This document shows positions 1 through 55,287 of a stretch of 64,000 nucleotides of DNA, piece after piece. Below the pieces are notes generated by a model. That model was not told where the DNA came from, did not search any database, and worked only from the letters and a program-made list of their open reading frames with translations. The position numbers were made by a program, and so were the translations under genes. Location: contig NC_090329.1 of assembly GCF_035084215.1 (NCBI RefSeq), positions 42,036,001 through 42,100,000 of the forward strand. The letters run 5' to 3'. Source of the stretch: Heptranchias perlo. Taxonomy: Eukaryota. The number at the start of each line of letters is the position of its first letter. Position 1 is the first letter of the stretch.

Positions 1-985
1 TTGGGAGGTGCTGAGGAGGAAGCCTTGGCGAGTTGCTGCAGTGCATCCTGTGGATGGTACGCACTGCAGCCACTGTGCGCCGGTGATGAAGGGAGTGAAT
101 GTTTAGGGTGGTGGATGGGGTGCCAATCAAGCGGACTGCTTTGTCCTGGATGGTGTCGAGCTTCTTGAGTCTTATTGGAGCTGCACTCATCCAGGCAAGT
201 GGAGAGTATTCCATCACACTCCTGACTTGTGCCTTGTAGATGGTGGAAAGGCTTTGGGGAGTCAGGAGGTGAGTCACTCGCCGCAGAATACCCAGCCTCT
301 GACCTGCTCTCGTAGCCACAGTATTTATATGGCTGGTCCAGTTAAGTTTCTGGTCAATGGTGACCCCCAGGATGTTGATGGTTGGGGATTCGGTGATTGT
401 AATGCCGTTGAATGTCAAGGGGAGGTGGTTGGACTCTCTTGTTGGAGATGGTCGTTGCTTGGCACTTGTCTGGCGTGAATGTTACTTGCCACTTATGAGC
501 CCAAGCCTGGATGTTGTCCAGGTCTTGCTGCATGCGGGCTCAGACGGCTTCATTATTTGAGGGGTTGCGAATGGAACTGAACACTGCGCAATCAGCGAAC
601 ATCCCCATTTCTGACCTTATGATGGAGAGAAGGTTATTGGTGAAGCAGCTGAAGATGGTTGGGCCTAGGACACTGCCCTGAGGAACTCATGCAGCAATGA
701 CCTGGGGCTGAGATGATTGGCCTCCAACAACCACTACCATCTTCCTTTGTGCTAGGTATGACTCCAGCCACTGGAGAGTTTTCCCCCTGATTCCCATTGA
801 CTTCAATTTTACTAGGGCTCCTTGGTGTCACACTCGGTCAAATGCTTCCTTGATGTCAAGGGAATTTACTCTCACCTCACCTCTGGAATTCAGCTCTTTT
901 GTCTATGTTTGGACCAAGGCTGTAATGAGGTCTGGAGCAGAGTGGTCCTGGCGGAACCCAAACTGAGCATCGGTGAGTAGTTTAT
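1..985 (-). mobile_element. Zenon-like CR1-clade LINE fragment (RT region, continues off the left edge)
   Basis: Minus-strand translation includes LLTDAQFGFRQDHSAPDLITALVQT. DNA is nearly colinear with 43074-44180. Confidence 0.9.
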
Positions 986-1049
986 TAGCATGCTCCGTGA
1001 ATTCAGATAAAGAGTCTTTAATTTTGACTTTAACCATTTTTTCCTGCTT

Positions 1050-3949: not shown

Positions 3950-4506
3950 TTTTTTTATCATTCTTTGGGATGTGGGTGTCGCTGGCAAGGCTGGCATTTA
4001 TTGCCCATCCCTAGTTGCCCTGAGTGAGGGTAGTTAAGAGTCAATCTCGTGGTGTTGAACTGGAGAAACATAGGGGGTACTTTTAACTGTTGGCGTTTGT
4101 GTAAAATGGGAGATATCAGATTGGCCGCCCATTATACACCCTTCCCGATTTTCCGTTCCGATAACTTCAAAGGAAAGGAAAATAAGGAAAAGTGGATGAT
4201 GGGTGGCCAATCTGATATTGCTTATTTACACTATCGGCCAAAGTTAAAATGCCCCCATATAGGCCATACTGGGTAAGGTCAGCAGGTTTCCTTCCCTAAA
4301 GCACATTAGTGAACAGTTGGGTTTTTATGACAATTCAATGGCTTCATGGTCAGTTTTACTGATACTGTTTTTTTATTTCCAGATTTTTAAAACTGAATTC
4401 ATATTCTTGAACTACCATGGTGGAATTTGAATTTACATTCTACTGGATGATTAGTCATGGCCTTTAGATGACTAGACCAGTGACATAACTACTATACAAC
4501 CATACC
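3950..4506 (-). mobile_element. tRNA-headed SINE-like element with the Zenon-like LINE 3' tail (interrupted by a MITE)
   Basis: 3965-4021 matches the LINE 3' end at 42790-42843. 4260-4500 matches 6490-6710. Degenerate A/B boxes followed by CCA on the minus strand. Confidence 0.75.
4073..4256. mobile_element. Palindromic Harbinger-type MITE
   Basis: Ends GGGGGTACTTTTAAC / GTTAAAATGCCCCC, with long internal inverted arms. 3-bp TSD ATA/ATA; an empty-site analogue (cacatatagg) lies at ~6496. Confidence 0.85.
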
Positions 4507-4514
4507 CGATATGT

Positions 4515-6710
4515 TCTACTTTTTGTGGAGAGGATATTCTTGGGCAATTTTCGACATTGTCAGGTAAATGCCAGTGTTGTAGCTGTACTGGAATAGCTTA
4601 GTTAGAAGCACAGCTAGTTCTTGAGCACAGGTCTTCAGCACTACAGTTGGAATATTGTCGGGGCCTGTAGCTTTTACTGTGTTCAGTGCACTCAGCCGTT
4701 TAAGAACATAAGAACTAGGAGCAGGAGTAGGCCAATCGGCCCCTCGAGCCTGCTCCGCCATTCAATAAGATCATGGCTGATCTGATCCTAACCTCAAATC
4801 TAAATTCATGTCCAATTTCCTGCCCGCTCCCCGTAACCCCTAATTCCCTTTACTTCTAGGGAACTGTCTATTTCTGTTTTAAATTTATTTAATGATGTAG
4901 CTTCCACAGCTTCCTGGGGCAGCAAATTCCACAGACCTACTACCCTCTGAGTGAAGAAGTTTCTCCTCATCTCAGTTTTGAAAGAGCAGCCCCTTATTCT
5001 AAGATTATGCCCCCTAGTTCTAGTTTCACCCATCCTTGGATGCTCAGTTTTGAGCTGCTAGATCTGTTCCTAATCTATCCCACTTAGCACAGTGGTAGTG
5101 CTATCCTTTGATGTCACGTGGAGTGAATCAAATTGGCAAAAGGCTGACATCTGTGATGGTGAGGTCCTCAGGAGGAGGCCGAGAAGGATCATCCACTCGG
5201 CATTGCTGGCTGAAAATGGTTGAGAATACTTCAGCCTTGACTTTTGCACTCATGTGCTGGGCTCCACCATCATTGAGGATGGGGAGTTTCATGGGGCCTC
5301 CTCCTCTTGTTAGTTGCTTAATTGTCCACCACCATTCACGAGTGGATGTGGCAGAACTTTGACTTGATCCATTAGTTGTGGGATCGCTTAACACTGTCTA
5401 TAATATGTTGTTTCTGCTGTTTAGCATCGCATGTAGTCCTGTATTATACCTTCACCAGGTTGGCATCTCATTTTCAGGTACGCCTGATGTTACTCTCGGC
5501 ATGCTCTTCTGCATTCCTCATTGAACCAGGGTTGGTCATCTGGCTTCATGATAATGGAGGATTAAGGGATATAACTGGCCATGAGGTTACAGATTGTGTT
5601 GGAATAAAATTCTGCTGTAGGTAATGGCCCACAGTGCCTCATGGATGCTCAGTTTTGAGCTGCTAGATCTGTTCCTAATCTATCCCACTTAGCACAGTGG
5701 TAGTGCTATATGATACGTTGGAGGGTGTCCTCAGTGTGAAGATGGGACTGGTCTCCATAAGGACCAAGAGGTGGTCACTCCTACCAACGCTGTCATGAAG
5801 TGACGCATTTGCGACAGGTAGATTGGTGAGGACGAGGCCAAGGAGGTTAATCCCTCGTGTTGGTTCTCTCACCACATGCTGCAAGCCCCAATCTGGCAAC
5901 TATGTCCTTCAGGACTCGGCCAGCTTGGTCAGTGGTGGTACTACCGATTTATTATTGGTGATGGACATGGAAGTCCCCACCCAGAGTACATTCTTTTGCC
6001 CTTGCTACTCTCAGTGCTTCCACCAAGTGATGTTCAACATGGAGGAGTACTGACCCATCAGCTGAGGGATGGCAGCATGTGGTAATCAGCAGGAGGTTTC
6101 CTTACCCATGGTTGACCTGAAGCCATGAGACTTCATTGGTCTGGAGTCAATGTTGAGGACTTCCAGGGCCACTCATCACAACTGTGCCTCCAACTCTGAT
6201 GGGTCTCTCCTGCTGATAGGACTGGACATACCCCTGGATGGTGATGGAGGAGTGTGGTCATTGGCTGATAGGTATGATTCTACAAGTCTAGCAGCTGTTC
6301 CAACTTTGGCAGAAGTGTCCTGATGTTAGTAAAGAGGACTTTGCAGGATCAACTGTGCTGAGTGTGCCCTTGTCATGTCCTGATTCAGTGATTAAATTGC
6401 AGCCAAGTGGTCAGTCCATTCTTTTTTTATTCTTTCTAGCGGTATGAGTTACTTGCTATGCCATTTCGGAGGGCAGTTGGTGTGGGATTGGAGTCACATA
6501 TAGGGCAGACCTGGTAAGGATGGCAGATTTCCTTCCCTAAAGGGTATTAATGAGCCAATATGGGTTTTTATGATAATCCGTCAACTTTGTGGTCACTTTT
6601 ACTAATGCCAGCTTTTTATTTCCAGATTTTTTAAACAGAATTCAAATTCTCCAACTACTATGGTGGGATTTTAACTTGTCTTCCCTGGATTACTAGTCCA
6701 GTAACATAAC
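4515..6710 (-). mobile_element. Older Zenon-like LINE: tRNA-like 5' head, APE endonuclease and start of RT; interrupted by a CR1 at 4701-5036
   Basis: Homologous to 44290-45650 (LGLVLTNLPVANASLHDSVGRSDH; GPDNIPTVVLKTCA). The last ~15 bp of the head are displaced to ~7637-7650 by the 6711 element. Confidence 0.85.
4701..5036 (-). mobile_element. 5'-truncated CR1 (HER1-like) 3' end
   Basis: Translation TRGHNLRIRGCSFKTEMRRNFFTQRVVGLWNLLP. TTCTTATG-type octamer tail. Confidence 0.9.
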
Positions 6711-7636
6711 GACCCAGAAATTGCTGGTGCGATGCATCTTGCAGCGAGCGCTATGAATGGGAATTCTTACCTCACCCTTAAGATCGTATTATTTTTAAAG
6801 CGCCAAATGCTGGAAATGTGAAATGATAACGGTGCGGTGATGTCAAAGGAGCATCTGGAACCTTCTGAACGTTGGGTCCAATGGTCTATCTCTTTAACTA
6901 ATAAAATTTAAGGATAGAGAAAGAAACAGAGCGAACGTTGGAGAAGGGTAAATGAGAGTCCAATTAGCTAGAATTCTACTAGTAAAGGACACTTAAATCT
7001 GTCTGCCAGACGCATGTGAGAGGTGATACTGCTGTCAGGAGAGTCTGCAGTTCATCCATTCCATTTCCTAAACGAAGCAAAGAAATGGTAATGGTGGAGG
7101 GAATTCTAATTTAAAAGGAAGTGGAAGGGAAGGGCTACATCACCATAAATCAATCCTGCCGTGGAAGTTTAGAAATCAGAGAGGAATTTAATCTAAGAAA
7201 CAGAAATAAAGAGAAGGAATGAAAAAGATTGGATTAAGAGAGAGAGAATAAAGAGACAGAAAGGAAAAGTAAGAAAAAAATTTAAAATTTATAAAAACCT
7301 CTAGCAACAATTTATTACATGCATGAGTGAGACTCCATAATTTTAATTGTTCCTTTTCTGGGCCTCCAAGTGGTTTGTCAGGACTATAAATCATGTCATT
7401 AACAGTGTCCTTACGACATGAATTACCAGCCGTAAATGGCTGCAGATGAGTTTAATTTGTATTAATGGCATGAATCCAGCAATTTCATGACAAAACAGTG
7501 AGGAGGCTTATGGTGAGATGGTAAATTTTTTTTGGTTTGGTGTATTTCTTCTTCGCCACAAATTGCTGGGTTTTTTACACACTAATAACGGCGAGTGCTG
7601 TGAACTCGCCATTGTTTTTCCAGCAATTTCTGGGCC
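6711..7636. mobile_element. Non-autonomous Harbinger-type element
   Basis: TIRs GACCCAGAAATTGCTGG / CCAGCAATTTCTGGGCC; TSD AAC/AAC; homologous along its length to 26009-26570. Confidence 0.85.
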
Positions 7637-7778
7637 AACAACTATTCCATCTTCTGTTCTAATGTGGAAGATATACATCTCTTCCCTTCGTGATTTAGGA
7701 ATGCGTACACACCCAAGTCCCCGTGACTGTACTAGAGACAGTATGTGTCGGAGTCCCTGGTAACCTATTAAAATATAT

Positions 7779-7968
7779 GAGGGTAATTTTGACTTTGTGC
7801 GATGGTGAGAAACACGTGATAGTGAATCAGCAGTTTGTTTTACATCTCTCCCGATTTTGATTTCAATGGAAATAAAAAAATAGAAATAAAAATCGGGAGA
7901 GATGTAAAACAGGCTGTCAATTCACTATCACTCGTTATACACCATCACACAAAGTCAAAATTACCCCC
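7779..7968. mobile_element. Palindromic MITE
   Basis: GAGGGTAATTTTGACTTTGTG / CACAAAGTCAAAATTACCCCC, with near full-length inverted arms. Confidence 0.85.
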
Positions 7969-8046: not shown

Positions 8047-8263
8047 GAATTCTACTAGTAAAGGACACTTAAAACTGTCTGCCAGACACGCGTGAGAAGT
8101 GATACTGCTGTCAGGAGAGTCTGCAGTTCATCCATTCCATTTCCTAAGCAAAGAAATGGTAATGGTGGAGGGAATTCTAATTAAAAAGGAAGTGGAAGGG
8201 AAGGGCTACATCACCATAAATCAATCCTGCCATAGAAGTTTAGAAGTCAGGGAGGAATTTAAT
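8047..8263 (+). repeat. ~220-bp segment duplicated in direct orientation at 6971-7192
   Basis: The two segments align with few substitutions and small indels. Confidence 0.95.
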
Positions 8264-19480: not shown

Positions 19481-21110
19481 GAACTGGTCACGCCTCTAGC
19501 CAAACTGTTCCAGTACAGCTACAGCACTGGCATCTACCCGACAATGTGGAAAATTGCCCAGGTATGTCCTGTCCACAAAAAGCAGGACAAATCCAATCTG
19601 GCCAATTACCACCCCATTAGTCTACTCTCAATCATCAGCAAAGTGATGGAAGGTATCGTCGACAGTGCTATCAAGTGCCACTTACTCACCAATAACCTGC
19701 TCACTGATGCTGAGTTTGGGTTCCGCCAGGACCACTCGGCTCCAGACCTCATTACAGCCTTGGTCCAAACATGAACAAAAAAGCTGAATTCCAGACGTGA
19801 GGTGAGAGTGACTGCCCTTGACATCAAGGCAGCATTTGACCGAGTGTGGCACCAAGGAGCCCTAGTAAAATTGAAGTCAATGGGAATCAGGGGGAAAACT
19901 CTCCAGTGGCTGGAGTCATACCGAGCACGAAGGAAGATGGTCGTGGTTGTTGGAGGCCAATCATCTCAGCCCCAGGACATTGCTGCAGAAGTTCCTCAGG
20001 GCGGTGTCATCAATGACCTTCCCTCCATCTTAAGGTCAGAAATAGGGATGTTCACTGATGATTGCACAGTGTTCAGTTCCATTCGCAACCCCTCAGATAA
20101 TGAAGCTGTCCGAGCCAAATGAACAAGACCTGGACAGCATCCAGGCTTGGGTTGATAAGTGGCAAGTAACATTCGCACCAGACAAGTGCCAGGCAATGAC
20201 CATCTCCAACAAGAGAGAGTCTAACCACCTACCCTTGACATTCAACGGCATTACCATCGCCGAATCCCCCGCCATCAACATCCTGGGGGTCACCATTGAC
20301 CAGAAACTTAACTGGACCAGCCACATAAATATTATGGCTACAAGAGCAGGTCAGAGGCTGGGTATTCTGCATTGAGTGACTCACCTCCTGACTCCCCAAA
20401 GCCTTTCCATCATCTACAAGGTACAAGTCAGGAGTGTGATGGAATACTCTCCACTTGCTTGGATGAGTGCAGCTCCAACAACGCTCAAGAAGCTCGACAC
20501 CATCCAGGACAAAGCAGCCCACTTGATTGACACCCCATCCACCACCCTACACATTCACTCCCTTCACCACCGGCGCACCGTAGCTGCAGTGTGTACCATC
20601 CACAGGATGCACTGCAGCAACTTACCAAGGCTTCTTCGACAGCACCTCCCAAACCCACAACATCTACCACCTAGAAGGACAAGGGCAGCAGTCACATGGG
20701 AACAACACCACCTGTACGTTCCCCTCCAAGCCACACACCATCCCGACTTGGAAATAAATCACCGTTCCTTCATCGTCACTGGGTCAAAATCCTGGAACTT
20801 CCTACCTAACAGCATTGTGGGAGAACCTTCACCACATGGACTGCAGCAGTTCAAGAAGGCGGCTCACCACCAACTTCTCAAGGGCTGATGTGGAGATGCC
20901 GGTGATGGACTGGGGTTGACAATTGTAAACAATTTTACAACACCAAGTTATAGTCCAGCAATTTTATTTTAAATTCACAAGCTTGTGAATTTAAAATAAA
21001 ATTGCTGGACTATAACTTGGTGTTGTAAAATTGTTCTCAAGGGCTATTAGGGATGGGCAATAAATGCTGGCCTCGCCAGCAACGCCCACATCTCATGATC
21101 GAATAAAAAC
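19481..21110 (+). mobile_element. 5'-truncated Zenon-like LINE (RT through 3' tail)
   Basis: WKIAQVCPVHKK, PISLLSIISKVME, ALDIKAAFDRVWHQG, FTDD, YKVQVRSVMEY. Candidate TSD ACAGAGGA/ACAAAGGA. Confidence 0.92.
20887..21035. mobile_element. Short insertion containing a perfect 108-bp palindrome (putative Penelope-like element terminus)
   Basis: 20928-20981 is the exact reverse complement of 20982-21035. Flanking direct repeat TTCTCAAGGGCT at 20875-20886 and 21034-21045. The Penelope assignment is inference. Confidence 0.7.
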
Positions 21111-21573
21111 AAAGGAGGTTTACCAGGATGATACCAGGGATGAGGACCTTCAGTTATTTGGAGAGATTGGAGAAGTTGGGATTGTTCTTCTTAGAGCAGA
21201 GAAGGTTAAGGGGAAACCTAATAGAGGTATTCAAAATTATGTGGGGTTTTGATAGATCCAGTAGGGAGAAACAGTTTCCCCTGGCAATTGAGTCGGTAAC
21301 CAGAGGTCATAGATTTAAAATAATTGGCAAATGAACTAGAGGGGAAATGAGGAGACATTTTTTCACACAGAGGGTTGTTAAGATCTGGAATGCACTACCT
21401 GAAAGGGTGGTGGAAGCAGATTCAAAAGGCAAGTGGACATGTACTTGAAGAGGACTAATTTGCAGGGTTATGGGGAAATAGCTGGGGTGTGGGACTAAAA
21501 TGGACAGCTCTTTCAAAAAGCTGGCACAGGTACCTTGGGCCGAATGGTCTCCTTCTGTTTTGTAAGATTCTAT

Positions 21574-26008: not shown

Positions 26009-26570
26009 GGCCCAGATTTTGCTGGAATGGGGCATCTCGTGACATGCCCTCTTAGTTACAGCTCTTCCCTCAACCTTCAGCTCAAAATTTTTTTGCCCCG
26101 TAACTTGCTGGAAGTGCGAGATGATAAAGGCACGGCGAGGACAACGGGGTATCTGGGACATTAGTGAATGACAGGACCGACAGTCTATCTCCTTAATCAA
26201 TGAGATTTAAGGATTGAGAAAGAAACAGAGGAATGATGGAGAAGGAGGGTGAATTAGAGTCAAATCATGTACAGAGAGAGAAATAATGAGAGAGAGAAAG
26301 GGAGAAAAGAGACAGAAAGGAAAAGTAAGATTTAAAAAAAATTTTTAACTATTAAAACTATTAAAAATATTTAACAACAATTTACTACCAGTGGGAATGA
26401 GACTCCACGGTTTAAATTGTTTCCTTTCTGGGATGGAGAGGTTGAGCGGCATTGCAGGAACATAAATCTCCTCACTAAAAAGGTACTTTCACAAATTGCT
26501 GGTCGATTTACACACTAATAACGGCGAGCGCCATTAAACTCATCATTATTTTGGCAGCAAATTCTGAGCC
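26009..26570. mobile_element. Non-autonomous Harbinger-type element (same family as 6711-7636)
   Basis: TIRs GGCCCAGATTTTGCTG / CAGCAAATTCTGAGCC; TSD ATT/ATT. Confidence 0.85.
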
Positions 26571-28371: not shown

Positions 28372-29847
28372 TTTAAAGGAAGAGAGAGAGGTAGAGAGGT
28401 GGAGAGATTTAGGAAGGGAATTCCAGAGCTTAGGGTCTAGGCAGCTGATGGCATGGCCGCCAATGGTGGAGCGATTAAAATTGGGGATGCGCAAGAGGCA
28501 AGAATTGGAGGAGCGCAGAGATCTCAGAGGGTTGTAGGGCTGGAGGAGGTTACAGGTAGGGAGGGGCAAGATCATGGAGGGAATAGAAAACAAGGATGAG
28601 AATTTTAAAATCGAGGCGTTCCCGGACAGGAAGCCAATGTAGGTCAGCAAGCATAGAAAAGCAGTATATGATTTAAATGGAGAGAGATTGCAGAACTCTG
28701 AGGTACAGAGGGATCTGGGTGTCCGAGTACATGAATCACAAAATGTTAGTATGCAGGTACAGCAAGTGATTAGGAAGGCAAATGGAATGTTGTAAGTTAT
28801 TGCAAGGGGAATGGAATATAAAAGTAGAGATGTTTTGCTACAGTTGTACAGGGCATTGGTGAGACCACATCTAGAATACTGTGTGCAGTTTTGGTCTCCT
28901 TATTTAAGAAAGGACATAATTGCTTTAGAGGCGGTTCAGAGAAGGTTCATTCGACTGATTCCTGGGATGAGGGGGTTATCTTATGAGGAAAGGTTGGACA
29001 AGTTGGACCTGTATACATTGAAGTTCAGAAGAATGAGAGGTGATCTTATTGAAACATATAAGATCCTGAGGGGACTAGAAGGGGTAGATGCTGAGAGGAT
29101 GTTTCCCCTTGTGGGAGAGACTAGAACTAGGGGCCACAGTTTAAAAATAAGGGGTCTCCCATTTAAGACGGAGATGAGGAGAATTTTTTTCTCTCAAAGG
29201 GTCGTGAGTCTGTGGAACTTCCTTCCCCAGAGAGTGGTGGAGGCAGGGTCATTGAATATTTTTAAGGCTGAGTTAGATAGATTCCTGATTAACAAGGGAG
29301 TCAAAGGTTATAGTAGGTAGACGGGAAAGTAGGGTTGAGGTCACAATCAGATCAGCCATGATCTTATCAAATGGCAGAGCAGACTCGAGGGGCCGAATGG
29401 CTCTTAATTCATATGTTTGTATGTTCGTACGTATATATGGGGTGATGGGTAAACAGGACTTGGTATGAGTTAGAATATGGACAGCAGAGTTTTGGATGAG
29501 CTCCAGTTCATAGAGGGTGGAAGATGGGAGGCCGGCCAGGAGAGCATTGGAATAGTCAAGTCCAGAGGTAACAAAGGCATGGATGAGGGTTTCAGCAGCA
29601 GATGGGCTGAGGCAGGGGCGGAGATGGGCGATGTTACAGAGGTGAAAGTAGGCTGCCTTGGTGATGGAGTGAACATGTGGTCGGAAGCTCATGTCAGGGT
29701 CAAATAGGACGCCAAGGTTGCAAACGATCTGGTTCAGCCTCAGGCAGTGGCCAGGGAGAGGGATGGAATCGATGGCTAGGGAACGGAATTTGTGGCAGGG
29801 ACTGAAGACAATGGCTTCGGGCTTCCCAGTATTTAGTTGGAGGAAAA
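28372..29847 (-). mobile_element. L2 LINE fragment interrupted by a CR1 (28657-29430)
   Basis: SFRPHVHSITKAAYFHLCNIAHLRPCLSPSAAETLIHAFVTSGLDYSNALL and KLWNSLP; homologous to 52630-53330. Confidence 0.9.
28657..29430 (+). mobile_element. CR1 (HER1-like) 3' portion
   Basis: ORF 28811-29320: LYRALVRPHLEYCVQFWSP...TRGHSLKI...FFSQRVVSLWN. TTCGTATG-type tail. Confidence 0.95.
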
Positions 29848-29999
29848 ATTTAGGTGTGATGAGCGCACTAGTGGTTGGAGTCGTGCTAATAACGGAGGCC
29901 AGATTGGAAAATCTACTACACTGAATACAATAAAAATATTAGACGGCTTTGTAATTACAACCAATAATTTTATCCCCCTACACGCTCATATACCTTTAA

Positions 30000-30405
30000 G
30001 AAAGAAAGAACATCTATTTATATAGCGCCTTTCATGCCTTCAGGACATCCCAAGAGTTTCACAGCTAATGAATCACTTTTGAAATGTTGTCATTGTTATT
30101 CTGCAGGCATATGTGGCAGCCAATTTGTGTACAGCAAGGTCCCACAAAAAGCAATGAGATGAATAACCACTTAATCTGTTTTGAATAGTGTCAGTTGAGA
30201 GATAAATGCTGGCAAGGACAACTCCCCAGCTCATCTTCAAATAGTCATGGATTTTTTATAAACTTGTTTTTAATGTGTCATCCAAAAGATGGCACCTCTG
30301 GTAATGATGCCCCACTCCCTCAGTACTGCACTCAAGTCCTGGAGTGGGGATTTTACCCATGACCTTCTAACTTAAACGCAAGAGCACTGAGCCAAAGCTG
30401 ATACT
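30000..30405 (-). mobile_element. DeuSINE (SacSINE1/AmnSINE1-like) with an L2-derived tail
   Basis: Deu-domain-like core (reverse complement CTTGCTGTACACAAATTGGCTGCC; CAGTACTGAGGGAGTG) and tail AAGGCGCTATATAAAT shared with the L2 end at ~53440. Confidence 0.75.
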
Positions 30406-32149: not shown

Positions 32150-33660
32150 CTGTCACTCATTCCATGCTGGACTGTGATTTTACAAATCCTTCATATATTG
32201 CTACAGGGATATCAGTGCTGCACTTCTGCAGAGTCTCTGCTATATCATGGACGGTGCTCTGAACATTCTCAAAGCATTGCATAAAGTGTTTTTGCTCTAT
32301 AGGCAGGCATCTAGTGTGCAGGGGGATATCTAGGCCTGGGCCTCTCTTTTGCTGATACCTGTTCCTCTACTGCCACCTCTATTTGCCCCTTCTGAGTTGT
32401 GCTGAGTGCTTCACCAATTGCTCCCTCCTAACCCTGACTAAGTGAACTCTCTGAGGTGGATGTATCTAAGCTGGCGCTTGTGCGTACAGGAGTGTGCAAT
32501 TGGTGCTTGTAGAGTAAACCAGCTTCCTGATGCCCTCCAGTGCCAGGTACAACATCTTGGAGGACCCCGGTGAAAGGTAAAAGGAAAACTATGTTGCGTG
32601 TATGAAATAGCTGGGCACAGAGGGGTAAAAATTCAGTTTCTCCATTGAGAGCACAAAATTGTAAAATTTCACACCTCAATTCCATTTTCTCTGGCCATTA
32701 AAATTCAATAAAAATCGAGAGCTAATGGTCCACTATTTTGCAATAACTAGAAATTCTACTCCAGAATTCCCAGACTAATACACTGATTACCGAACTACTG
32801 TTGTGCAGAATGAGCCTGGATCTTAGTGAGTGAGTGAGTTTCAAGGAGGTCCAAGAAGAAGTGAAGCAGAACACTTGCCTCATTGAACTGTCACAAAGCG
32901 GCCAAACTCTCTCTCACACATACTCTCATTCACCGCCACTCCAACTATTTGCAGGGCTGCCTTCGCATGTCAAGTCTCTAGAGGTTGGTAGGGCTGCCAC
33001 CAGTCCTTGGTATCTCCTTTAAAGCCAGACAATAGATTCAGGTGCTGGCATTTGGAGGAGCAGAGAGTGCCAGCCCAGTGTCCAGCCTATGCCTCACCTT
33101 GTGTGAGTGAATGACAAAGAAACATGCAACTAATTTCAGGTCCCAGTTTCAATTAGTACTACAGTATGCAAACATTAGGTGTGATGTTGGAAGCATGTTT
33201 AGATGTCAGCCACAAAGTTTGCCCAGCAGCGTTAGGAACATAAAAGTATAGCTGTGAAAGATATGAAAGATTGTCATTGCTTCCTGGCCCCTTTGCTGAT
33301 GCTGCACCATGCTTGGGGGCACAGCACTTACAGCATGCAGACTATGGCTAGACACTATATTCGGACTGGCAAAGTGTGGACACACTTACCTTGGCACTCT
33401 TCCTCAGGTCAGAGAACTGCTCATCCCATGACCTATGGCCGTAGGAGACAGCACTGACTTTATGAGCCACTTTCTGCCATGTTTGCTGCACATTGTGATG
33501 CAGAGGAGGGCTCCCTTCAGCCTCAAATGTGCCTATTCCTTTGTTGCACCTCCTACAGCAGACCATCTAAACTTTCTTCATCAAAGGGGACATTGCTGGC
33601 CCAATTCCTTTGTCCAATCTTCCATTGCTGGCAGATTTTATGGAGCCAATAGCTTGAAGT
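32150..33660 (-). pseudogene. Highly decayed Harbinger Myb/SANT gene region
   Basis: TWQKVAHKVSAVSYGHRSWDEQFSDLRKSAK followed by donor gtaagt near 33389. The downstream extent is a guess. Confidence 0.5.
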
Positions 33661-34205
33661 GAGAGATGTGGCCTGTTAAGTGCCACCACTCTTCAGATAG
33701 TTCATTCTCTATCAATTATAGTGGTCCCTCTGCGCTGGGAAAATGCACAAGGAACATATTCAAATAATATGCATTACTTGACCTCGCTGAATCCAGCATG
33801 GCCATCGTCTTGCTCCAGTAGTGCAGAGCTTCAGAAGAATGCAGCGGTCCTGGCACCATCTCAGCTTGGAACGCTGAACTGGCTCTATCTGTATTGCTTA
33901 GGATGAGCAGTTCTCTGAGCTGAGGAAGAGTGCCAAGGTAAGTGTGTCCACACTTTGCCAGTCCAAATATAGTGTCTAGCCATAGACTGCATGCTGTAAG
34001 TGCTGTGCCCCCAAGCATGGTGCAGCATCAGCAAAGGGGCCAGGAAGCAATGACAATCTTTCATATCTTTCACAGCTATACTTTTATGTTCCTAACGCTG
34101 CCGGGCAAACTTTGTGGCTGACATCTAAACACGCTCCTAATATCACACCTAATGTTTGCATGCTGTAGTACTAATTGAAACTGGGACCTGAAATTAGTTG
34201 CATGT
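33122..34205. repeat. 305-bp inverted repeat (33122-33426 / 33901-34205) with a 474-bp spacer
   Basis: About 9 mismatches by manual comparison. Near-identical ORFs on opposite strands (MKDMKDCHCFLAPLL...). Confidence 0.95.
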
Positions 34206-35347: not shown

Positions 35348-35657
35348 TGACCTCAAAAATAATCCCTTTGGATTTTGTGCTTAGAAACGCATTTTGTAAT
35401 TTTGTGAATTGTTTCTCAAACGCATTTGCAGCCATTGTGGAGAGTTTAGGTTTCTGCCATGTGCCTGTAATGAAGCCATTTTAATCTCTTTTTTGCTTGT
35501 TTGGAATAGGAGGGAAAATCTAACTTTCACATAACAAACACCTTAACTCTAGTAGTTAAGGCAGAAGTGTCTTCCCCTCACAACCTGCAGGATAACCCTC
35601 CTCCACCTCAGTCTGCTTATGAAAACTGCCATCTAACTGTGAACACAGCAAAAGCAT

Positions 35658-35834
35658 GGGGTAATTTTAACTTTTGGCGATATTGTAAGACGAACGATAT
35701 CGGTTCAACCGCCCGTTATACATCTCGTCTGATTTTCCATTCTGCCTTAGAAAGGAAAATCGAGTGGGGTGTATAACGGACAGCCTATCCGCTAGCGTCC
35801 GTTTTACAATATTGACAAAAGTTAAAATTACCCC
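35658..35834. mobile_element. Palindromic MITE
   Basis: GGGGTAATTTTAACTTTTG / CAAAAGTTAAAATTACCCC with inverted arms. Confidence 0.85.
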
Positions 35835-36684
35835 ACACTTTTGCGAAAAGTCTGAACAGTGACATTCTGAAATGCCATTCCGGGACACTATAAATGAACA
35901 GCCCTCTTTCCTATTTATGATGTTACTGAACGTGAACTTTATGATTTCGCTATAGGGAGAGTTCCAGACAGAACAGGGCCAATATATCCTTTGCTCAATG
36001 CTCCATGTGCACCAGTTCCTGAAGAAAATGGGTTGAGACCTGTAACACCAGGTCTCCATCCCAGTGGTACGTGATGTGCATTCATGGCTGGGAGGAGCGG
36101 GCGACAGAAACTCCTGCTTGAAACAGGCCAGAGGTTCATTATCATACTTAAATAACACGTGAACCCTTTTTTGACATCTCCCATGTCTTTTTACACCCTT
36201 TACGCCAGGTCGATAGCAATTGGAAACAATGTCCCCTTTACCTGGGTAGATAGATTGAAAGGGCCAAATTCATGGTTCTTTTAGCAGTTTTGAAGCCATT
36301 TCTGTTTTCTTTTCTCCTGGGACTTAGCTTCTCATGTGCTTTATAGTTTTCCAAGGAAGCTGAGATGACACTAAAATTATATGTATATATGTGTGTCTCA
36401 TAGGTGAAAAGTCTGTTTTCATCATTGCCAAATCAAAGCAAGTTCTATACACCAACCTAGATTTCCTGATCAGGATTGGTAAAAGTGGGCAGAGATTGTA
36501 ATGACAGATTTCTTCTCCAGTTCCTGTGAGTGGGGAACACAGGCTTTGGAACTGCCCGTCTTAAACAGGTGGCAACTTTATTTGTCATTTCCCAATATTG
36601 GGGTGTACATATCGTTGCTAGATCACACGAAATGGCACCCAGAGTTGCTAGGTAATAGTGAATATATGGAAGACCATGTGTTTT

Positions 36685-39264: not shown

Positions 39265-39508
39265 AAATTCATTCTCAGGGTATGGGCGTCGCTAGCATGG
39301 CCAGCATTTATTGCCTATGCCTAGTTGCCCTTGAGAAAGTGATGGTGGTCTTTCTAGTTGAACCACTTCAGTCCATGTGGTGAAGGTACTTCCACAACGC
39401 TGTTAGGTAGTGAGTTCCAAGGTTTTCACCCAGCGACAATGAAGGAACGACGATCTATGTTCAAGTCAGGATGGTGTGTGACTTGGAAGTGATGGTGTTC
39501 CCATATGT
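39265..39508 (-). mobile_element. Zenon-like LINE 3' end fragment
   Basis: Homologous to 42790-43030. Confidence 0.85.
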
Positions 39509-42774: not shown

Positions 42775-45652
42775 TTTTTTTTAGTTCACGGGATGTGGGC
42801 GTCGCTGGCGAGGCCAGCATTTATTGCCCATCCCTAATTGCCCTTGAGAAGGTGGTGGTGAGCCGCCTTCTTGAACCGCTGCAGTCCGTGTGGTGATGGT
42901 TCTCCCACAGTGCTGTTAGGAAGGGAGTTCCAAGATTTTGACCCAGCGACAATGAAGGAACGGCGATATATTTCCAAGTCGGGATGGTGTGTGACTTGGA
43001 GGGGAACGTGCAGGTGGTGGTGTTCCCATATGCCTGCTGCTCTTGTCCTTCTAGATGGTAGAGGTCGCGGGTTTGGGAGGTGCTGTCGAAGAAGCCTTGG
43101 CGAGTTGCTGCAGTGCATCCTGTGGATGGTACACACTGCAGCCACAGTGTGCCGGTGGTGAAGGGAGTGAATGTTTAGGGTGGTGGATGGGGTGCCAATC
43201 AAGCGGGCTGCTTTATCTTGGATGGTGTCGAGCTTCTTGAGTGTTGTTGGAGCTGCACTCATCCAAGCAAGTGGAGAGTATTCCATCACACTCCTGACTT
43301 GTGCTTTGTAGATGGTGGAAAGGCTTTGGGGCGTCAGGAGGTGAGTCACTCGCCGCAGAATACCCAGCCTCTGACCTGCTCTCGTAGCCACAGTATTTAT
43401 ATGGCTTGTCCAGTTAAGTTTCTGGTCAATGGTGACCCCCCCCAGGATGTTGATGGTAGGGGATTCGGCGATCGTAATGCCGTTGAATGTCAAGGGGAGG
43501 TGGTTAGACTCTCTCTTGTTGGAGATGGTCATTGCCTGGCACTTACCTGGCACGAATGTTATTTGCCACTTATGAGCCCAAGCCTGGATGTTGTCCAGGT
43601 CGCTGCATGCGGGCTCGGACTGCTTCATTATTTGAGGGGTTGCGAATGGAACTGAACACTGTGCAGTCATCAGCGAACATCCCCATTTCTGACCTTATGA
43701 TTGAGGGAAGGTCATTGACGAAGCAGCTGAAGATGGTTGGGCCTAGGACACTGCCCTGAGGAACTCCTGCAGCAATGTTCTGGGGCTGAGATGATTGGCC
43801 TCCAACAACCACTACCATCTACATTGTCGGGTAGATGCCAGTGTTGTAGCTGTACTGGAACAGCTTGGCTAGAGGCGCAGCTAGTTCTGGAGCACAAGTC
43901 TTCAGCACTATAGCCAGGATGTTGTTGGGGCCCATAGCCTTTGCTGTATTCAGGTATGACTCCAGCCACTGGAGAGTTTTCCCCCTGATTCCCATTGACT
44001 TCAATTTTACTAGAGCTCCTTGGTGCCACACTCGGTCAAATGCTGCCTTGATGTCAAGGGCAGTCACTCTCACCTCACCTCTGGAATTCAGCTCTTTTGT
44101 CCATGTTTGGACCAAGGCTGTAATGAGGTCTGGAGCCGAGTGGTCCTGGCGGAACCCAAACTGAGCATCGGTGAGCAGGTTATTGGTGAGTAAGTGCCAC
44201 TTGATAGCACTGTCGACGACACCTTCCATCACTTTGCTGATGATTGAGAGTAGACTAATGGGGCGGTAATTGGCCGGATTGGATTTGTCCTGCTTTTTGT
44301 GGACAGGACATACATGGGCAATTTTCCACATTGTCGGGTAGATGCCAGTGTTGTAGCTGTACTGGAACAGCTTGGCTAGAGGCGCAGCTAGTTCTGGAGC
44401 ACAAGTCTTCAGCACTACAGCCGGGATGTTGTCGGGGCCCATAGCCTTTGTTGTATCCAGTGCACTCAGCCGTTTCTTAATATCACGTGGAGTGAATCGA
44501 ATTGGCCGAAGGCTGGCTTCCGTGATGGTGGGGATATCGGGAGGAGGCCAAGATGGATCATCCACTCGGCACTTCTGGCTGAAGATGGTTGCAAATGCTT
44601 TAGCCTTGTCTTTTGCACTCACGTGCTGGACTCCGCCGTCATTGAGGATGGGGATGTTTCCAGAGCCTCCTCCTCCCGTTGGTTGTTTAATTGTCTACCA
44701 CCATTCACGACTGGATGTGGCAGGACTGCAGAGCTGTGATCTGATCCGTTGGTTGTGGAATCGCTTAGCTCTGTCTATAGGATGTTACTTCCACTGTTTA
44801 GCATGCATGTAGTCCTGAGTTGTAGCTTCACCAGTTTGGCACCTCATTTTTAGGTATGCCTGGTGCTGCTCCTGGCATGCTCTCCTACACTCCTCATTGA
44901 ACCAGGGTTGATCCCCTGGCTTGTTGGTAATGGTAGAGTGAGGAATATGCCGGGCCATGAGGTTACAGATTGTGCAGGAATACAATTCTGCTGCTGCTGA
45001 TGGCCCACAGCGCCTCATGGATGCCCAGTTTTGAGCTGCTAGATCTGTTCTGAATCTATCTCATTTAGCACGGTGGTAGTGCCACACAACACGTTGGATA
45101 GTGTCCTCAGTGCGAAGACGTGACTTCATCTCCACGAGGACTGGGCGGTGGTCACTCCTACCAATACTGTCATGGACAGATGCATTTGCGACAGGTAGAT
45201 TGGTGAGGACGAGGTCAAGTAAGTTTTTCCCTCGTGTTGGTTCGCTCACCACCTGCCGCAGGCCCAGTCTGGCAGTTATGTCCTTCAGGACTCGGCCAGC
45301 TCGGTCAGTAGTGGTGCTACTGAGCCACTCTTGGTGATGGACATTGAAGTCCCCCACCCAGAGTACATTTTGCGCCCTTGCTACCCTCAGTGCTTCCTCC
45401 AAGTGGTGCTCAACATGGAGGAGGACTGATTCATCAGCTGAGGGAGGGCGGTAGGTGGTAATCAGATGAAGGTTTCCTTGCCCATGTTTGACCTGATGCC
45501 ATGAGATTTCATGGGGTCCAGAGTCAATGTTGAGGACTCCCAGGGCCACTCCCTCCTGACTGTATATCACTGTACCGCCACCTCTGGTGGGCCTGTCCTG
45601 CCGGTGGGACAGGACATACCCAGGGATGGTGATGGAAGAGTCTGGGACGTTG
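42775..45652 (-). mobile_element. Zenon-like CR1-clade LINE, 5'-truncated within the endonuclease; ORF disrupted
   Basis: APE motifs (RGGGTVIY, YRPPS, VGDFN, PTRGKNLLDLVLTN, SDH); RT motifs (RPISLL, AQFGFR, LDIKAAFDRVWH, GVPQGSVLGP, FADD); C-terminus YKAQVRSVMEY; A-rich tail. Confidence 0.95.
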
Positions 45653-46349
45653 CTGGAAGAAATACTATTTGATGTTTTACAAATCCAAGTTCTTTGAACA
45701 AATTTCCGGATAGGAGTGAGAGGCCCATACCTTTTTACACCTATCATTGCTTTCCCAATCTGAAGCCTTTGATGTGTACTCTTGTTGCCTTCTCTTACAT
45801 TACCCCCTGCTGTGTTGAAAAGTCTATGTGTTTTAAAAGTCTAACAACCCTCCAAGCTCATCTTTATCCATCTAGCTTATTTATCTAATGATCTCGATAT
45901 CTATCCGCACAGTACAATGTCTTCGATCCCAAAACTCACTCTCCAATGCCATCAGAGTCACTGAGGGAAAAGCAGGATTTGCGAGAACACAGTTTACCAC
46001 ATTATTGTGTTTGCAAGTTTTCAAATGACTTTGTTTAAAAGGGGCACAGTTAACCCTTTCCTTCAAATGTCTTTTATTAAAGGGATTATGAACCCCACAG
46101 AACATTTTCCAACATTGGAATCCCAAACAATACATTTAATTTTTTAAAGAAAGAACTCAAACTGATGATGTTCATTTATGGATCTTTTGTTCTTCCTGGT
46201 GACAGCCAACATAAACTAAATATTCTAAGATATTTTCTTAATGAATTTTCACTCCCAGTGACTGTGAGAACTCCCCTGCTCTTCATCACTGAGAGCACAT
46301 CTCAGGAATTCAGGTGCAGAGGTCAGCAGCCCCGCAGCATTTTATGTCC

Positions 46350-46585
46350 AGGCACTATTTCGAAGAAGAGCAGGGGAGTTCTTACAGTGTTCTGACCTCA
46401 GCCAACATCAATAAAAAAAAACAAATGATCTGGTCATTATCTCATTGCTGTCTGTGGAACCTTGCTGTGCCCAAATTGGCTGCCGCGTTTGCCTACATTA
46501 CAACAGTCACTACACTTCAACATTGGCTGTAAAGTGCTTTGGGACGTCTTGAAGGCGCTATATAAATACTAGTCTTTCTTTCTTT
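46350..46585 (+). mobile_element. DeuSINE 3' portion
   Basis: GGCACTATTTCGAAGAAGAGCAGGGGAGTT...CTTGCTGTGCCCAAATTGGCTGCCGCGTTT...GGCGCTATATAAAT with a (CTTT)n tail. Confidence 0.8.
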
Positions 46586-48650
46586 CGCAGGGTCACTAAC
46601 CTCAGGAGTGGAAGGTATCAGTCTTCCTCCCAGTTGCAGACACATGTTGATTTGCATGAACATTAGTTATGGTGTTTCTGGCCCATTTTTCTTAATTTTT
46701 TTTGTTTTATTTTCCTGTTGCACTTAGGTACCCATGTATTTTAGTAGCAATTATTTAATCCCCCCCGAACACCATTACTGCCATCAGTGGGTTTCCCAAT
46801 GGGAATCCATCTATCTGAGGTGCTTGGTAGAAGAAGATGACCATCAAAGGGATGTCAGACAAGTCAGGCTGTTTGAGAGGCACTGTATGCCCACCTGCCA
46901 ATACCTGCCTACCAGCTTCTGCAGATAGAGGTGAACATAGCTCACATTGGCAGATGATTAGTGCATGCAGCAGTTGTGATAGTGGCTCCAGTGGAACAGA
47001 TACTTGTTAAGACCTGACTGTTTTTTCAGAAGCCAATTATTGCCAATCATGCTTTTTGTGGTATTGCATGAAAAAAGACATGCTAGGTGATCATCAACCA
47101 GCAAATCTTTGATTAGCACTACCTACCAATATGCCACCACTATTACTCACAGACATTGTCTGGAAATAGGTGCCTTCAGAGGTCTTGATCAGTACAGAGT
47201 ATGATTCCCACTATGATTGTGCACGCATAACATTCTAAAGTAATTCATAACTTTTATTTCACTCTATGTGAAAGTAAAGGTATCTTTGGCTATTTTCAAT
47301 ATTTCTGTTAGATCAAAATATTGTCCCCAAATTTTCTTGGGATGGGCTACCAGTATAAGAAGGGCAGGCGGGACAGGCAGGGCAGGAAATAGGGTGGGAC
47401 CCCGTAATGCTGGCTCTCCGCCTCAAAGAGAGGGCCACGGGGATTTCACCTGGGGGCAGGCGTGAGCGGTTGTTGCCCCCCCCCCCCCCTCGCGGCCTGA
47501 CGTATTACAAGGAGATCAAATCCATTAGAATTTCTGTTAGCACCACCTCCTGTGCCCCCAGTGTACTGTAACCCGGCAAGATACAAGCATACATTATATT
47601 GCAAAGGCGGAAGTGGGGTCCACAAGACTGTTCTCGGCCGGGTTAGAACACGCCAATACTGAACTTCTAGCCCCAGTGAAATCAGTCCTCTTATATAAAG
47701 GGGCCAAGTTCACATGCTCTATTGATGCCAGGTTTTCTGGCCCATTCTGCGTATTCAAAGCTCTCGCATTTTACTTATTTTAAATCAATGTCACTAATGT
47801 TCAGTCACTTTTTTGTTTGAACAAGATAAGATTAGAGATGACTGTTGATCAATGAATAAACAGTTAATGCCTTTGTATGACATTCCTCTGTTCATTATTT
47901 TAACAGACGTGTTGATCCATTTACAATAATCATTAAATGTTTGCTGATATCCCCAACAGTAGTTTCTAAATATAATCTCTACCTGCGTCTCACTGGAAAT
48001 AAGAATCCCTGGTTAATTTGTTTCAATGGATCCACAATACAGGAGTCATTTACCAACTTTGCACTCCCAGCAGGGAGTCCCACCCACTGGGAGCACATAT
48101 TAGAAATTCCTCTGCACTCTACCGAATTATGGGGCTAGAAATTGGGCCGTATAGAGCCCGTTGTTTCGGCGCTACGTGGTCTCCCGAAGTGTCAAGATGG
48201 CGTCTTGGCTGCGCACACACATTTCCAGCGTGACATGTGCCATATGCCATCTTGGTATAGGAGTTAGCGCGTGCGCAAATACCGAACACCTGCAGCATGT
48301 AAAGTAGGGAGAAAATGCGCACAATCAGTGTGCAACGCTGATTTAAAGTGATAGACACCATTTTGGGACTTAACGTTCAACTCAATGCACAGTCTTAATC
48401 ACGCACACCTGAACATGTCTTAGACGGCCTGGAGGACCCCCCCCACCACCAGTGCTATTTAAAGGGACCATGCAGGTGTTGCAGGTTAGATGCTGGATTA
48501 TTGCTTCTGGCTGCTGGTGGAACAGGAAGTGTTTTTTGAAGCTTCCTATACTTATTAAGAGTTGCTACAGTACATTTGAGAGTGGTTTGACAGGTAATGC
48601 CTTATGGTTCAGAAAGTTACATCCGTGGTTGAACAACATTCCTGGCAACA

Positions 48651-49838
48651 ATGGGCAGTCTGCTAGGGCTCCCGCTGGGCATTGAGCACGATTCGGAGCA
48701 TGCAGAGAGGCCACGCACAGTGGGTCAAGCTGAGAGGAAAGGGAGGAGGAGGAGGCACAGGGCACTGAGCAGGAGGCCCTATCCAATGAGGGCCTTCCGG
48801 GACCAATTCTCTTACCTCAACATGAGCGAGGAGGATTGCATCTGATGTCTGAGGTTCACCAAGGAAGCCGTCACCGAGATCTGTCAACTGCTGCGGCTAC
48901 AACTGCAATCTCAGAGCAGGGCAAGGACAGCGTTTCCTGTGGCTGTGAAGGTAACGGTGGCGCTGAACTTCTTCGGCTCATGATCATTTCAGGCCTCTGC
49001 TGGCGACATGTGCAACATCTCGCAGTATGCAGTGCACTGGTGCATAAGAGAGGTCACAGACGCACTGTATGAGATGAGGAACAGGTTCATCACCTTCACT
49101 CTCGACAGAGACAATCAGAACGAGTGAGCATGGGGGTTCGCCCGCATTGCTGGCTTCCCCATGGTGCAGGATGCCATTGACTGCACGCACATTGCCCTGC
49201 GTGCCCCGCACATCAACTTGGCTATCCTCGTCAACCGAAAGGGCGTCCACTCCCTGGACGTGCAGCTGGTGTGCGACCACACGCATCGAATCATGGAGGT
49301 CGATGCCAACTACCCTGGGAGCAGTCACGACGGCTTCCTTATGCGGCAGCCCAACGTGCCAGCTATCTTTCACCCAGTTTGGCAAGTCAAAGGCTGGCTA
49401 CTGGGCGACAAGGTCTATCCCCTCACACCGTGACTCATGACACCAGTCAGGAATCCACGTACATGTGCACAGCAGGCCTTTAATGAGAGCCATGCTGCCA
49501 CACGCAACATAATGGAGCACACCATAGGCCTCCTCAAACAACGCTTCTGCTGCCTGGACCGGTCTGGAGGAGCCCTGCAGTTCACCCCTGTGCTGGTGGA
49601 CAGATTGGTGGTGGTCTGCTGCATGCTGCACAACCTCGCCATCATAAGGGATCAGTCCTTGCCAACGATGATCGAAGAAGATCCTGAGCCAGAGGTGGAG
49701 GAGGGGGAAGAGGCTGAGGGTCAGGAAGTGGAGGAACCGGAGGAGGAAGTGGAGGAAGATGCAAGGGTACAACAGGGAACACACGCCTTGTCTGCAAGGG
49801 CTCTGCGTACTCGCCTGATCCGTGCCCGCAATCAATAA
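48651..49838 (+). pseudogene. HARBI1-like DDE transposase: 395 codons, no frameshift, four in-frame TGA stops
   Basis: ORFs at 48651, 49161 and 49437 share one frame. Motifs AIDCTH, NRKGVHS, YPGSSHD, LLGDKVYP, MEHTIGLLKQRF, CCMLHN, then an acidic tail. Stops at 48843, 48981, 49125, 49431. Confidence 0.95.
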
Positions 49839-50039
49839 TGTGAACTACATCCCCCAACTCACCGACTGTCCTACACTCCCCACCTGTCCGCTCCCACATG
49901 ACAATCAAATCTCCCTCCATCTGATTGCACATTGGTTTTCCTCTCAGCTCATCGCACAAATAAAAACCACCACCAAATGCAAATTCCAAGTCACATTTAT
50001 CAATGAATAAATAAGATTAGGGAAACAGAACAGAGCTAT

Positions 50040-51545
50040 TCACCCTTGTGCATTCCTTAGTTCCTGTTGTTCATGTGCCTTTACCTTTCCTGGTGCTACT
50101 ACAAGGTGCTTCCCCAGTGGGAGGCTGCTGGCCTTCAATTGAGGAGACTGCAGATGGCCTTGAGAGGATGACCTCAAGCATCTCTGGGCCAAGAGGGCCC
50201 GGCTTCAGACTGCACCATCTCAGCACAGGCTGCAGCAGTCTTGCCTGGCTGGCTGACAGGCAACAACAAGGGCACTGACAGACTGGCAGGGGTGGGAGCA
50301 GGAATGCTGTAATTCTGAGAGAGGGCAACAAGGCCACTGCCACTCTCCCGGGGCGGTGTCTCAGCAACCCTGGTGATCAGCTGGAGAACGGATTGCTGGA
50401 GTGCTGTGATGTCCTGGAAGTCCCGTTCCACAGTCCCCAGAGCCATGATAGCAGCAGTCTGAGCTTCCATTGCAGCAGTCTGAGCTGGCATCTGTGATAT
50501 CCGTTCCCCCCGCCCCGGCTCCTGCGCACTTGTGCTCGGTGTCTCACCATGTGCAGATCCCTCCTCTAACCTAACCTCTAAAGGACGCGCAGTGTCAGTC
50601 TCTGAGCTGGTGGAAGCAAGTGTGAGATCGAGTGATGGTGTGACTTCAGTGTCCCCCTCCTCCTCCTCCTTCTCCTCCTCCTCCTCGGACGGTGCCGCCA
50701 GGTGTTCTTGAGTATCTGCAATGACAAAGGGAAACAGGTTGAATTGTGGAGCGGGAAGAGGAGCAAATAAGACGTGCGTGCCGACAGCATCTGCAGCACA
50801 TGAATCAGAAAAGATTATGGGAGGAGGAAGATGTGGGAAACGAGAAGGAGCATTAGATATGCAGAGACCCCCTTCATCGGGGACCTCTAGCACGGCGTGT
50901 GGTCACTGCTGCAGCGACGGCCCGGCCAACGATCTGAAGCACCGTCTCCTCCAAGGGGGTGAGGATGTGTAGACGTGCCTGCCCACCCTCAGGTCCTTCC
51001 TGCTGTCGGTTGTTATGCGCAACCTTCTCCTGCAAGACAGAGGACAGTGTGTCAGTGAGTATCCTGCAAGGTGTCTAGCTGGTGTGCCTGTCATGGAAGA
51101 ATAGCTGCCAATGTGTGTGACCTGTGAGTGGTGGTTGTGTGGCCCGCAAGTGTGGTGCTATGTGTGGGTGAGATGCAGCATGCTGAGTGCAGCATTGCGT
51201 ATGGATGGGCAGTGTTTGGTGGGTGGGTGACAGGGAGTGTGATGTGTGGAGCAGTGGTGCATTTGGTAGGATGTGCCACTTGCATTCACTCACCTTGACC
51301 ACTCGTGTCAAATCGTTGAACTTCTTTCGGCACTGCACCCATGTGCGTGGTGCCATGCTCCTGGCATTGACATCCTGGGCCACAGCCTGCCAATGCCTGT
51401 TGAGCTGGAGTCTGGAGGGTCTCCTGCCACCCTGCGGGTACATGCTGGCCCTCGTTTCGTCAACCCCCTCCACCAGGGCCTCCAGTTCATCATCCGAGAA
51501 TCGTGGGGCTAGCTCTCGCGCCAGTTCTGCCATCCTTGCAACCAT
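50040..51545 (-). pseudogene. Harbinger Myb/SANT DNA-binding protein gene, 3 exons
   Basis: Exon 1 51545-51294 (APRFSDDELEALVEGV...WQAVAQDVNA...RTWVQCRKKFNDL, donor gtgagt). Exon 2 from 51029 (EKVAHNNRQQ...LTPLEETVL). Exon 3 from 50715 (acidic), apparently internally deleted. Confidence 0.88.
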
Positions 51546-54997: not shown

Positions 54998-55287
54998 GGG
55001 CCCCCTGTTCTTGAATTGCTTCAGTTGGGAGGCAGGTGGAGCGAGCGCGTTACCCACCTGAAGGAAGTGATCGGTGGCCTGAACCATTTTCATGGTTGGA
55101 CCTCATTTGAATTCCATTGCCAACCGGTTTGGAGCAGCTCTCCATTTGGGGAGGGCAGAAAATCCAACGGCTCCTCTGTGGAGCCCAACCGTCCCTGGTA
55201 GGTTAAGGAACGGATGGGGGGGCGGAGGGGGGGGGGGTTGGGATATGATTGTGAGGGAGCATTAATGTTACTCCTGTCCCAACAAAA

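Follow-up and report, generated by a model that had tools for sequence, protein, structure and literature searches.

LINEs are regarded as RNA polymerase II (Pol II) units and SINEs as RNA polymerase III (Pol III) units put together from separate parts. Within the available text of PMC5786205, bipartite SINEs are found in the RTE and Vingi clades only. Elasmobranch Zenon LINEs have been catalogued by Stuart et al. 2026 (PMC13343379) as the consensuses SquAca_Zenon-1/2/3, CarCar, ScyCan, RhiTyp and HypSab_Zenon-1, whose species codes we take to denote white shark, whale shark, catshark, stingray and, for three consensuses, spiny dogfish. These consensuses measure 2,886-3,314 nt; Zenons are without ORF1 and end in poly-A, the shark Zenons were new to repeat databases, and near-full-length copies number from hundreds to over 2,000 per genome, a few of them with an intact ORF (table in PMC13343379). 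The Zenon family, the absence of ORF1 and the head-plus-tail Zenon deletion forms of moths, which are without a Pol III head, are already known, and the word tRNA has 0 occurrences in the text and searchable supplement of PMC13343379. Here we describe, in a 64-kb stretch of repeat-rich eukaryotic DNA (the window), a decayed Zenon LINE joined to a short element that shares its head and carries a Zenon tail.

Layout of the focal LINE

The focal LINE was found to run on the minus strand from ~7659 to 4508 as a decayed copy comprising head, leader, endonuclease and the start of the reverse transcriptase (RT). The first bases of its head lie at 7637..7659 (minus strand; 5' limit approximate), include an A-box-like motif at 7649-7639 and match the head of the short element at 11 of 15 anchored positions. 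A MITE-like DNA element (6711..7636, no strand assigned, 926 nt) with 17-bp terminal inverted repeats (16/17) and a 3-bp target duplication interrupts the head where the A box ends; it contains a nested 222-nt repeat (6971-7192) and has a relative near 26010-26570 (73-80%). Past this insertion the head continues at 7637, where 6 of 9 anchored positions beyond the duplication matched, as they did at 1% of positions in the window.

The remainder of the head, and the leader, occupy 6343..6710 (minus strand), with an anticodon-arm-like hairpin at 6701-6685 and a B-box-like motif at 6676-6666, and the endonuclease motif starts at 6342 on the minus strand. Once the 926-nt insertion at the A box was discounted, the leader came to ~390 nt and held no ORF1, which bore out the earlier note's claim that the LINE had no room for an ORF1 upstream of an endonuclease start placed at ~6340. 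The window leader holds five ATGs, all of them out of frame with the endonuclease.

The decayed endonuclease and start of the RT (4508..6342, minus strand; 3' part absent) were 82% identical over 1,173 nt to a copy at 44477-45645, and among named proteins the endonuclease came closest to one of the horn shark Heterodontus francisci (75% across half of the query). Within this ORF lies the 3' fragment of another LINE family (4701..5032, minus strand; matching 29112-29401 and 54557-55011), presumably of CR1 type as judged from its C-terminus, and adjoining it an exact 68-nt duplicate of 5642-5709 (5037..5104, minus strand). The focal LINE lacks a 3' end; its homology stops at 4508, the short element starts at 4507, and similarity comparison within the window found no LINE sequence beyond the short element.

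The best-kept of the other Zenon copies (42775..45645, minus strand) is 5'-truncated inside the endonuclease, its frames matching Pfam Exo_endo_phos_2 (E 1e-15) and RVT_1 (E 7e-18), and was used for the terminator analysis below. Two further copies are 5'-truncated, one with a tail (19481..21113, plus strand; 89-97% to 42775-44384) and one cut by the window edge (1..986, minus strand; 94-96%), and a 3' end stands alone at 39269..39507 (minus strand; 80%). The Zenon tail folds as a stem-loop (z -2.6), which is the likely RT recognition site and is common to the short form.

Family assignment and fixation of the head

A motif from the window leader retrieved the Zenon rows of Supplementary Table 2 of PMC13343379. 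Like the published family, the LINE has a single ORF with AP endonuclease and RT (by Pfam on the sister copy) and no ORF1 in its 390-nt leader, its leader matches a published consensus by eye over 400 nt, and oligo-A stands on 3 of 4 Zenon tails, the focal LINE having no 3' end to compare. Because its leader matches the shark and ray Zenon consensuses, the focal LINE is, on sequence grounds, an elasmobranch Zenon element, a decayed copy of an abundant shark and ray family; the missing ORF1 is a known Zenon trait and no surprise. Together with the horn shark match of the endonuclease, the leader match places the host among the elasmobranchs.

As only one of the five window copies, the focal one, reaches the 5' end, fixation of the head was judged from the published consensuses. 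In the first 400 nt available for each, head, body and linker were seen by eye at the 5' start of all 7 elasmobranch Zenon consensuses (5 species), and the head was absent from the two hagfish and one coelacanth Zenon (0/3). The earlier note's reading of a single-ORF LINE with a fixed head, and of a short element made of head plus tail, was thus supported, all 7 published consensuses being headed and none having an ORF1; full-length copies that were headless or carried an ORF1 were looked for and did not appear among the five-species elasmobranch consensuses. P0001, a protein model from a sixth species (Heterodontus), runs by eye from this leader on into the endonuclease. By tblastn the leader part of P0001 gave weak segments only (9/15 at 6383-6339), and protein searches with its leader-endonuclease junction returned P0001 alone or no match.

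Contigs from four sequencing runs of four organisms covered both head and ORF over 5900-6900, depth there not being equal to copy number. At the A-rich linker (6410-6443), which is strongly diverged from the published consensuses (by eye), coverage was very low at 80% likeness, and the one crossing piece among the matches listed was identical to the window. Further copies with flanks were found neither in viral contigs (one chance match, L003) nor in prokaryote genomes, and a metagenome search gave two distant LINEs (31-36% identity) with no tRNA or B box. One metagenome LINE (L001) was rejected as a relative, having a long upstream ORF and belonging to another family.

tRNA-like features of the head

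The B-box-like motif AGTTAAAATCC at 6676 and the A-box-like motif at 7649 of the focal LINE each matched 9 of 11 positions of the respective box consensus, and both boxes of the short copy matched 8 of 11 positions of the same consensuses. The hairpin at 6701-6685 has a perfect 5-bp stem and a 7-nt CT-NNN-AA loop, and was one of 2 such hairpins on both window strands. The layout of the head, in which an extra arm precedes the B box, may be most like that of a serine-type tRNA.

ARAGORN called 0 tRNAs across the 64-kb window, Rfam gave no tRNA match for either window head even at E values up to 10, and the window heads were no better folded than shuffles (z 0.8 and -0.6). The tRNA-like label given to the head by the earlier note accordingly rests on motifs, the A- and B-box-like sequences and the hairpin standing and a tRNA call by ARAGORN or Rfam not being obtained. 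The comparison of the head with tRNAs that it had proposed gave no tRNA from Rfam or ARAGORN on the decayed window heads and an exact B box in three consensuses. This exact 11-nt B box had 3 occurrences, each in a shark Zenon, in the searchable text of the PMC13343379 supplement, which covers at least 910 CR1-group rows and, for each consensus, the first 400 nt. Both boxes were better matched in the published consensuses than in the window copies. Judged from these motifs, the head is likely to be tRNA-derived.

The short element

The short element lies on the minus strand in two parts. Its 5' part (4257..4507) carries the full head from the family's first base, the start being judged by eye against SquAca_Zenon-1, and contains a second hairpin arm, which the focal LINE copy is without; its 3' part (3951..4072) carries ~40 nt of further leader, a breakpoint near 4030-4020, the Zenon tail, AATAAA and oligo-A. 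Between them stands a palindromic MITE (4073..4256, no strand assigned, 184 nt, 3-bp target duplication) with relatives at 7781-7966 and 35648-35844; Rfam miRNA matches in the region are palindromic MITEs, all far under the gathering score. Over 206 nt the LINE leader (6497-6698) was 76% identical to the short element (4256-4456; E 7e-35), and the short-element tail (3967-4021) matched a LINE tail (42790-42844) at 91% over 55 nt and two further tails at 83-86%.

With the MITE removed, the short element (4507-3951) equals the first 290-310 nt of the leader plus the LINE tail, the last ~100 nt of the leader being absent. It then consists solely of LINE 5' and 3' ends, as in a SIDE, and has a LINE-derived 3' tail as in a SINE2 (83-91% to three Zenon tails). 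The earlier note had described an element at 3950-4506 in which the head was joined directly to the tail; the common head and tail held, and the direct join did not, the 184-nt MITE standing between them and the leader end being missing. A few bases are common to both sides of the breakpoint, no target-site duplication was evident around the short element, and it was the single short-type copy in the 64-kb window, among two heads. The short element is likely an internally deleted LINE form that kept the putative promoter and the tail.

Since a full short element is fused to the LINE 5' half and no continuation follows it, the junction of that 5' half with a short element that is complete from its first base is most likely to reflect a template switch during one insertion; insertion of the short element followed by deletion is the alternative.

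The short element was also considered as a SacSINE1 Deu-SINE fused to an L2, and this was rejected, as none of three Deu motifs occurred in 3950-7650 with up to 3 mismatches; the comparison was at motif level, with three motifs from a printed alignment and not the full SacSINE1 consensus. Elsewhere in the window, two of the three Deu motifs matched at 30220-30295 and 46269-46380, which are likely Deu-SINE copies.

Depletion of Pol III terminator-like motifs

T4 is a stop signal for Pol III and TVTTT a moderate one, both being minimal terminators in the available text of PMC8466645. On the coding strand of copy 42783-45645 (internal duplicate removed, 2,727 nt), T4 or TVTTT, the latter pattern having been picked after the T3 deficit was known, occurred 0 times against 6.2 expected (5 of 5,000 shuffles as low), compared with 21 on the opposite strand of the same 2,727 nt. 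Control LINEs were not depleted (CR1, 22 in 3,319 nt; L2, 15 in 1,930 nt). In copy 42783-45645, runs of at least three T numbered 4 where 17.5 were expected (none of 20,000 shuffles had so few) and T4 numbered 0 against 3.4 (566 of 20,000 shuffles), with A runs at the expected level. Under synonymous-codon shuffling T3 remained depleted (5 against 11.5, P 0.002; controls CR1 P 0.48 and L2 P 0.71), and T4 singly was not significant by dinucleotide (P 0.21) or synonymous (P 0.20) shuffles.

Two overlapping younger Zenon copies also had 0 T4 or TVTTT (P 0.02 and 0.08, non-independent), the depletion signal being drawn from three younger, mutually overlapping and non-independent copies. No such depletion was seen in the focal copy (5 against 6.5 expected) or the short element (2 against 2.2), as would be compatible with decay after insertion. 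The longest T4-free stretch on either window strand (3,192 nt) spans copy 42783-45645. The T-run depletion is a real signal, yet one not specific to Pol III.

Proposed mechanism and rival explanations

The anatomy described above (leader family identity, a head that five species have fixed, endonuclease and RT domains with no ORF1, common head and tail, and younger copies free of T4 and TVTTT on the coding strand) is close to certain. Our best explanation of it, held with modest confidence, is that a single-ORF Zenon LINE may carry its tRNA-type head as a Pol III promoter and have given rise to the short form by internal deletion. From the head, together with a coding strand free of terminator-like motifs, Pol III transcription of the coding LINE may reasonably be proposed, at evenly balanced chances.

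The head would have been gained before the shark/ray split, replacing an older 5' UTR, and would serve as the internal promoter for an entire 3.3-kb RNA; TFIIIC would be recruited by the two boxes, A and B, and Pol III would read through the T-run-purged body and stop in the flanking DNA. Translation of the uncapped RNA into the endonuclease-RT protein would be cap-independent or start at a non-AUG codon; a cap-independent route would fit since the leader ATGs are out of frame, as is the conserved AUG in the stingray consensus (by eye). Once bound to the tail stem-loop, this protein would reverse-transcribe the RNA by target priming, and deletion between head and tail would give a ready-made SINE in one step. 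The whole chain, of an abundant autonomous LINE family retained since the shark-ray ancestor, transcribed end to end by Pol III, with a terminator-purged 3-kb ORF, an uncapped mRNA and a SINE born by a single deletion, is put forward tentatively, at somewhat less than an even chance.

Transcription by Pol III is preferred to transcription by Pol II with a repurposed head at about an even call, and Pol II is the main rival. The head would then be a fixed, repurposed 5' UTR acting as a TFIIIC-bound insulator or enhancer or as an RNA structure or translation element, with Pol III confined to the short forms, a reading that we regard as possible but doubtful. LINEs are generally Pol II transcripts (available text of PMC5786205), Zenons are poly-A tailed and AATAAA was present in all four tails examined, although this signal fits Pol II or Pol III equally; the Squalus and stingray consensuses also have imperfect B boxes (by eye). 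Against these points, three consensuses retain both the A and the B box in perfect form, and Pol II transcription predicts no strand-specific loss of T4 and TVTTT over the whole ORF, a loss that avoidance of splice acceptors or of premature polyadenylation could mimic.

The direction of exchange may also have been the reverse, an older SINE, made up of a tRNA head, a body and a Zenon tail, having passed the first two of these to the LINE through a template switch. The short element would then descend from the donor and be no deletion product; this is rather unlikely, and compatible with either polymerase. SINE-LINE module exchange by template switch is known (available text of PMC4824008 and PMC5499810), the join at 4508/4507 resembles one, and headless Zenons are present outside elasmobranchs. 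However, Zenons repeatedly spawn head-plus-tail deletion forms (available text of PMC6740152), and the short copy has the doubled hairpin arm of the Squalus-type consensus, which the consensuses of the other four species are without (by eye), so that it appears to track a lineage-specific LINE variant. That the short element is a one-off internally deleted LINE copy, with no SINE family behind it, we consider unlikely: it is alone in 64 kb, shows no evident target-site duplication and is not separated from long forms by the sequencing-run contigs, but it retains the exact first base and the tail, both ends needed for mobility, and has a few shared bases at its breakpoint. A one-off insertion of a SINE upstream of an ordinary LINE would accord with one window copy in five reaching the 5' end, yet the same head-leader join recurs in all seven published consensuses of five species, and over-extension of these consensuses into a common SINE is countered by the shared linker into the ORF, leaving this reading extremely improbable.

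Under the preferred Pol III reading, a LINE with a built-in tRNA-type head would be a one-step route to SINE birth and, if true, a natural Pol III mRNA of ~3 kb would exist and the usual divide between LINE and SINE would be erased. If Pol II drives Zenon, the finding reduces to a conserved 5' module, hitherto unremarked, in a family that was catalogued recently.

Comparison with known systems

SINE pieces were reportedly noted in the 5' ends of BovB LINEs by Walsh et al. in 2013, a possible precedent. No report of a tRNA-headed autonomous LINE was found in the open literature covered, which includes the available text of PMC3747384, PMC4824008, PMC7245038, PMC11481361 and PMC6685494; Repbase, Dfam and subscription papers may contain one. 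The elasmobranch Zenon LINEs of PMC13343379 have the same head and leader (by eye), a length of 2.9-3.3 kb, a single endonuclease-RT ORF, no ORF1 and an A tail, and that paper is silent on the head, a short partner and terminator avoidance in these Zenons.

ZenoSINEs (PMC6685494) and the bivalve CR1-Zenon-tailed SINEs (PMC11481361) are likewise carried by Zenon, the tail alone being reported as common in the available text. The Deu-SINEs SacSINE1/LmeSINE1, with an L2-2_CM tail, resemble the short element as tRNA-headed shark SINEs with a tail common to a CR1-group LINE, but as far as the available text of PMC5499810 goes their sharing with a LINE is reported for the tail only, and 3950-7650 is without Deu motifs. 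The Persaeus SIDE of Lepidoptera likewise derives from a Zenon LINE whose interior was deleted, leaving its 5' and 3' ends, and in the available text of PMC6740152 is without tRNA homology or a Pol III promoter, whereas the shared 5' end at this locus is a head of putative tRNA type. The bipartite SINEs of RTE and Vingi carry both LINE ends, as here (Kojima 2018, PMC5786205); in the available text of that paper the tRNA head is on the deleted form alone, whereas at this locus the tRNA-type head is on the autonomous LINE.

Junction and translation start of the Zenon LINE

The homology of the focal LINE, a decayed minus-strand Zenon element, was found to end at 4508, directly abutting the first base (4507) of the short element that joins the same head to a Zenon tail, and no LINE 3' half was present in the window after the short element's oligo-A. 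The two are a candidate for a template-switch chimera that would have been inserted as a single unit. No AUG in the endonuclease frame was found in the Zenon leader (window 6343-6500) and, by-eye, the conserved AUG past the A-rich linker of the stingray consensus HypSab_Zenon-1 (PMC13343379) appears to be out of frame, together hinting that the endonuclease ORF is initiated by non-AUG or frameshift means.

In the best-kept Zenon copy (42775..45645, minus strand), approximately 130 nt of RT is replaced by a 136-nt internal duplicate (43818-43953) of 44325-44460. In the Heterodontus francisci gene model P0001, sequence from the Zenon leader and endonuclease is fused with a pair of immunoglobulin V-type domains, which is probably an annotation artefact.

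Other repeats in the window

Further long stretches free of T4 (four-T) runs, of 1.3-1.8 kb and non-Zenon, were observed at 48316-51669 and 59301-62123.

A MITE-like family with 17-bp TIRs and a 3-bp duplication, which we take to be Harbinger-like, is represented at 6711-7636 and ~26010-26570, with the former copy containing a 222-nt repeat that recurs at 8047-8263 (93%). Members of a palindromic MITE family of 185-195 nt (4073-4256, 7781-7966 and 35648-35844) gave pre-miRNA-like hairpin scores, under Rfam gathering thresholds. The inverted repeat at 33122-34205 (305 nt, 97% complementary, spacing 474 nt) is a young DNA-transposon-like element.

Within 46269-46584, the Deu motif occurs twice, at 46269 and 46365, in inverted orientation. 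The sequences at 29998-30295 and 46269-46584 are likely to be true Deu-SINE copies of the SacSINE1 type, with an L2-type tail.
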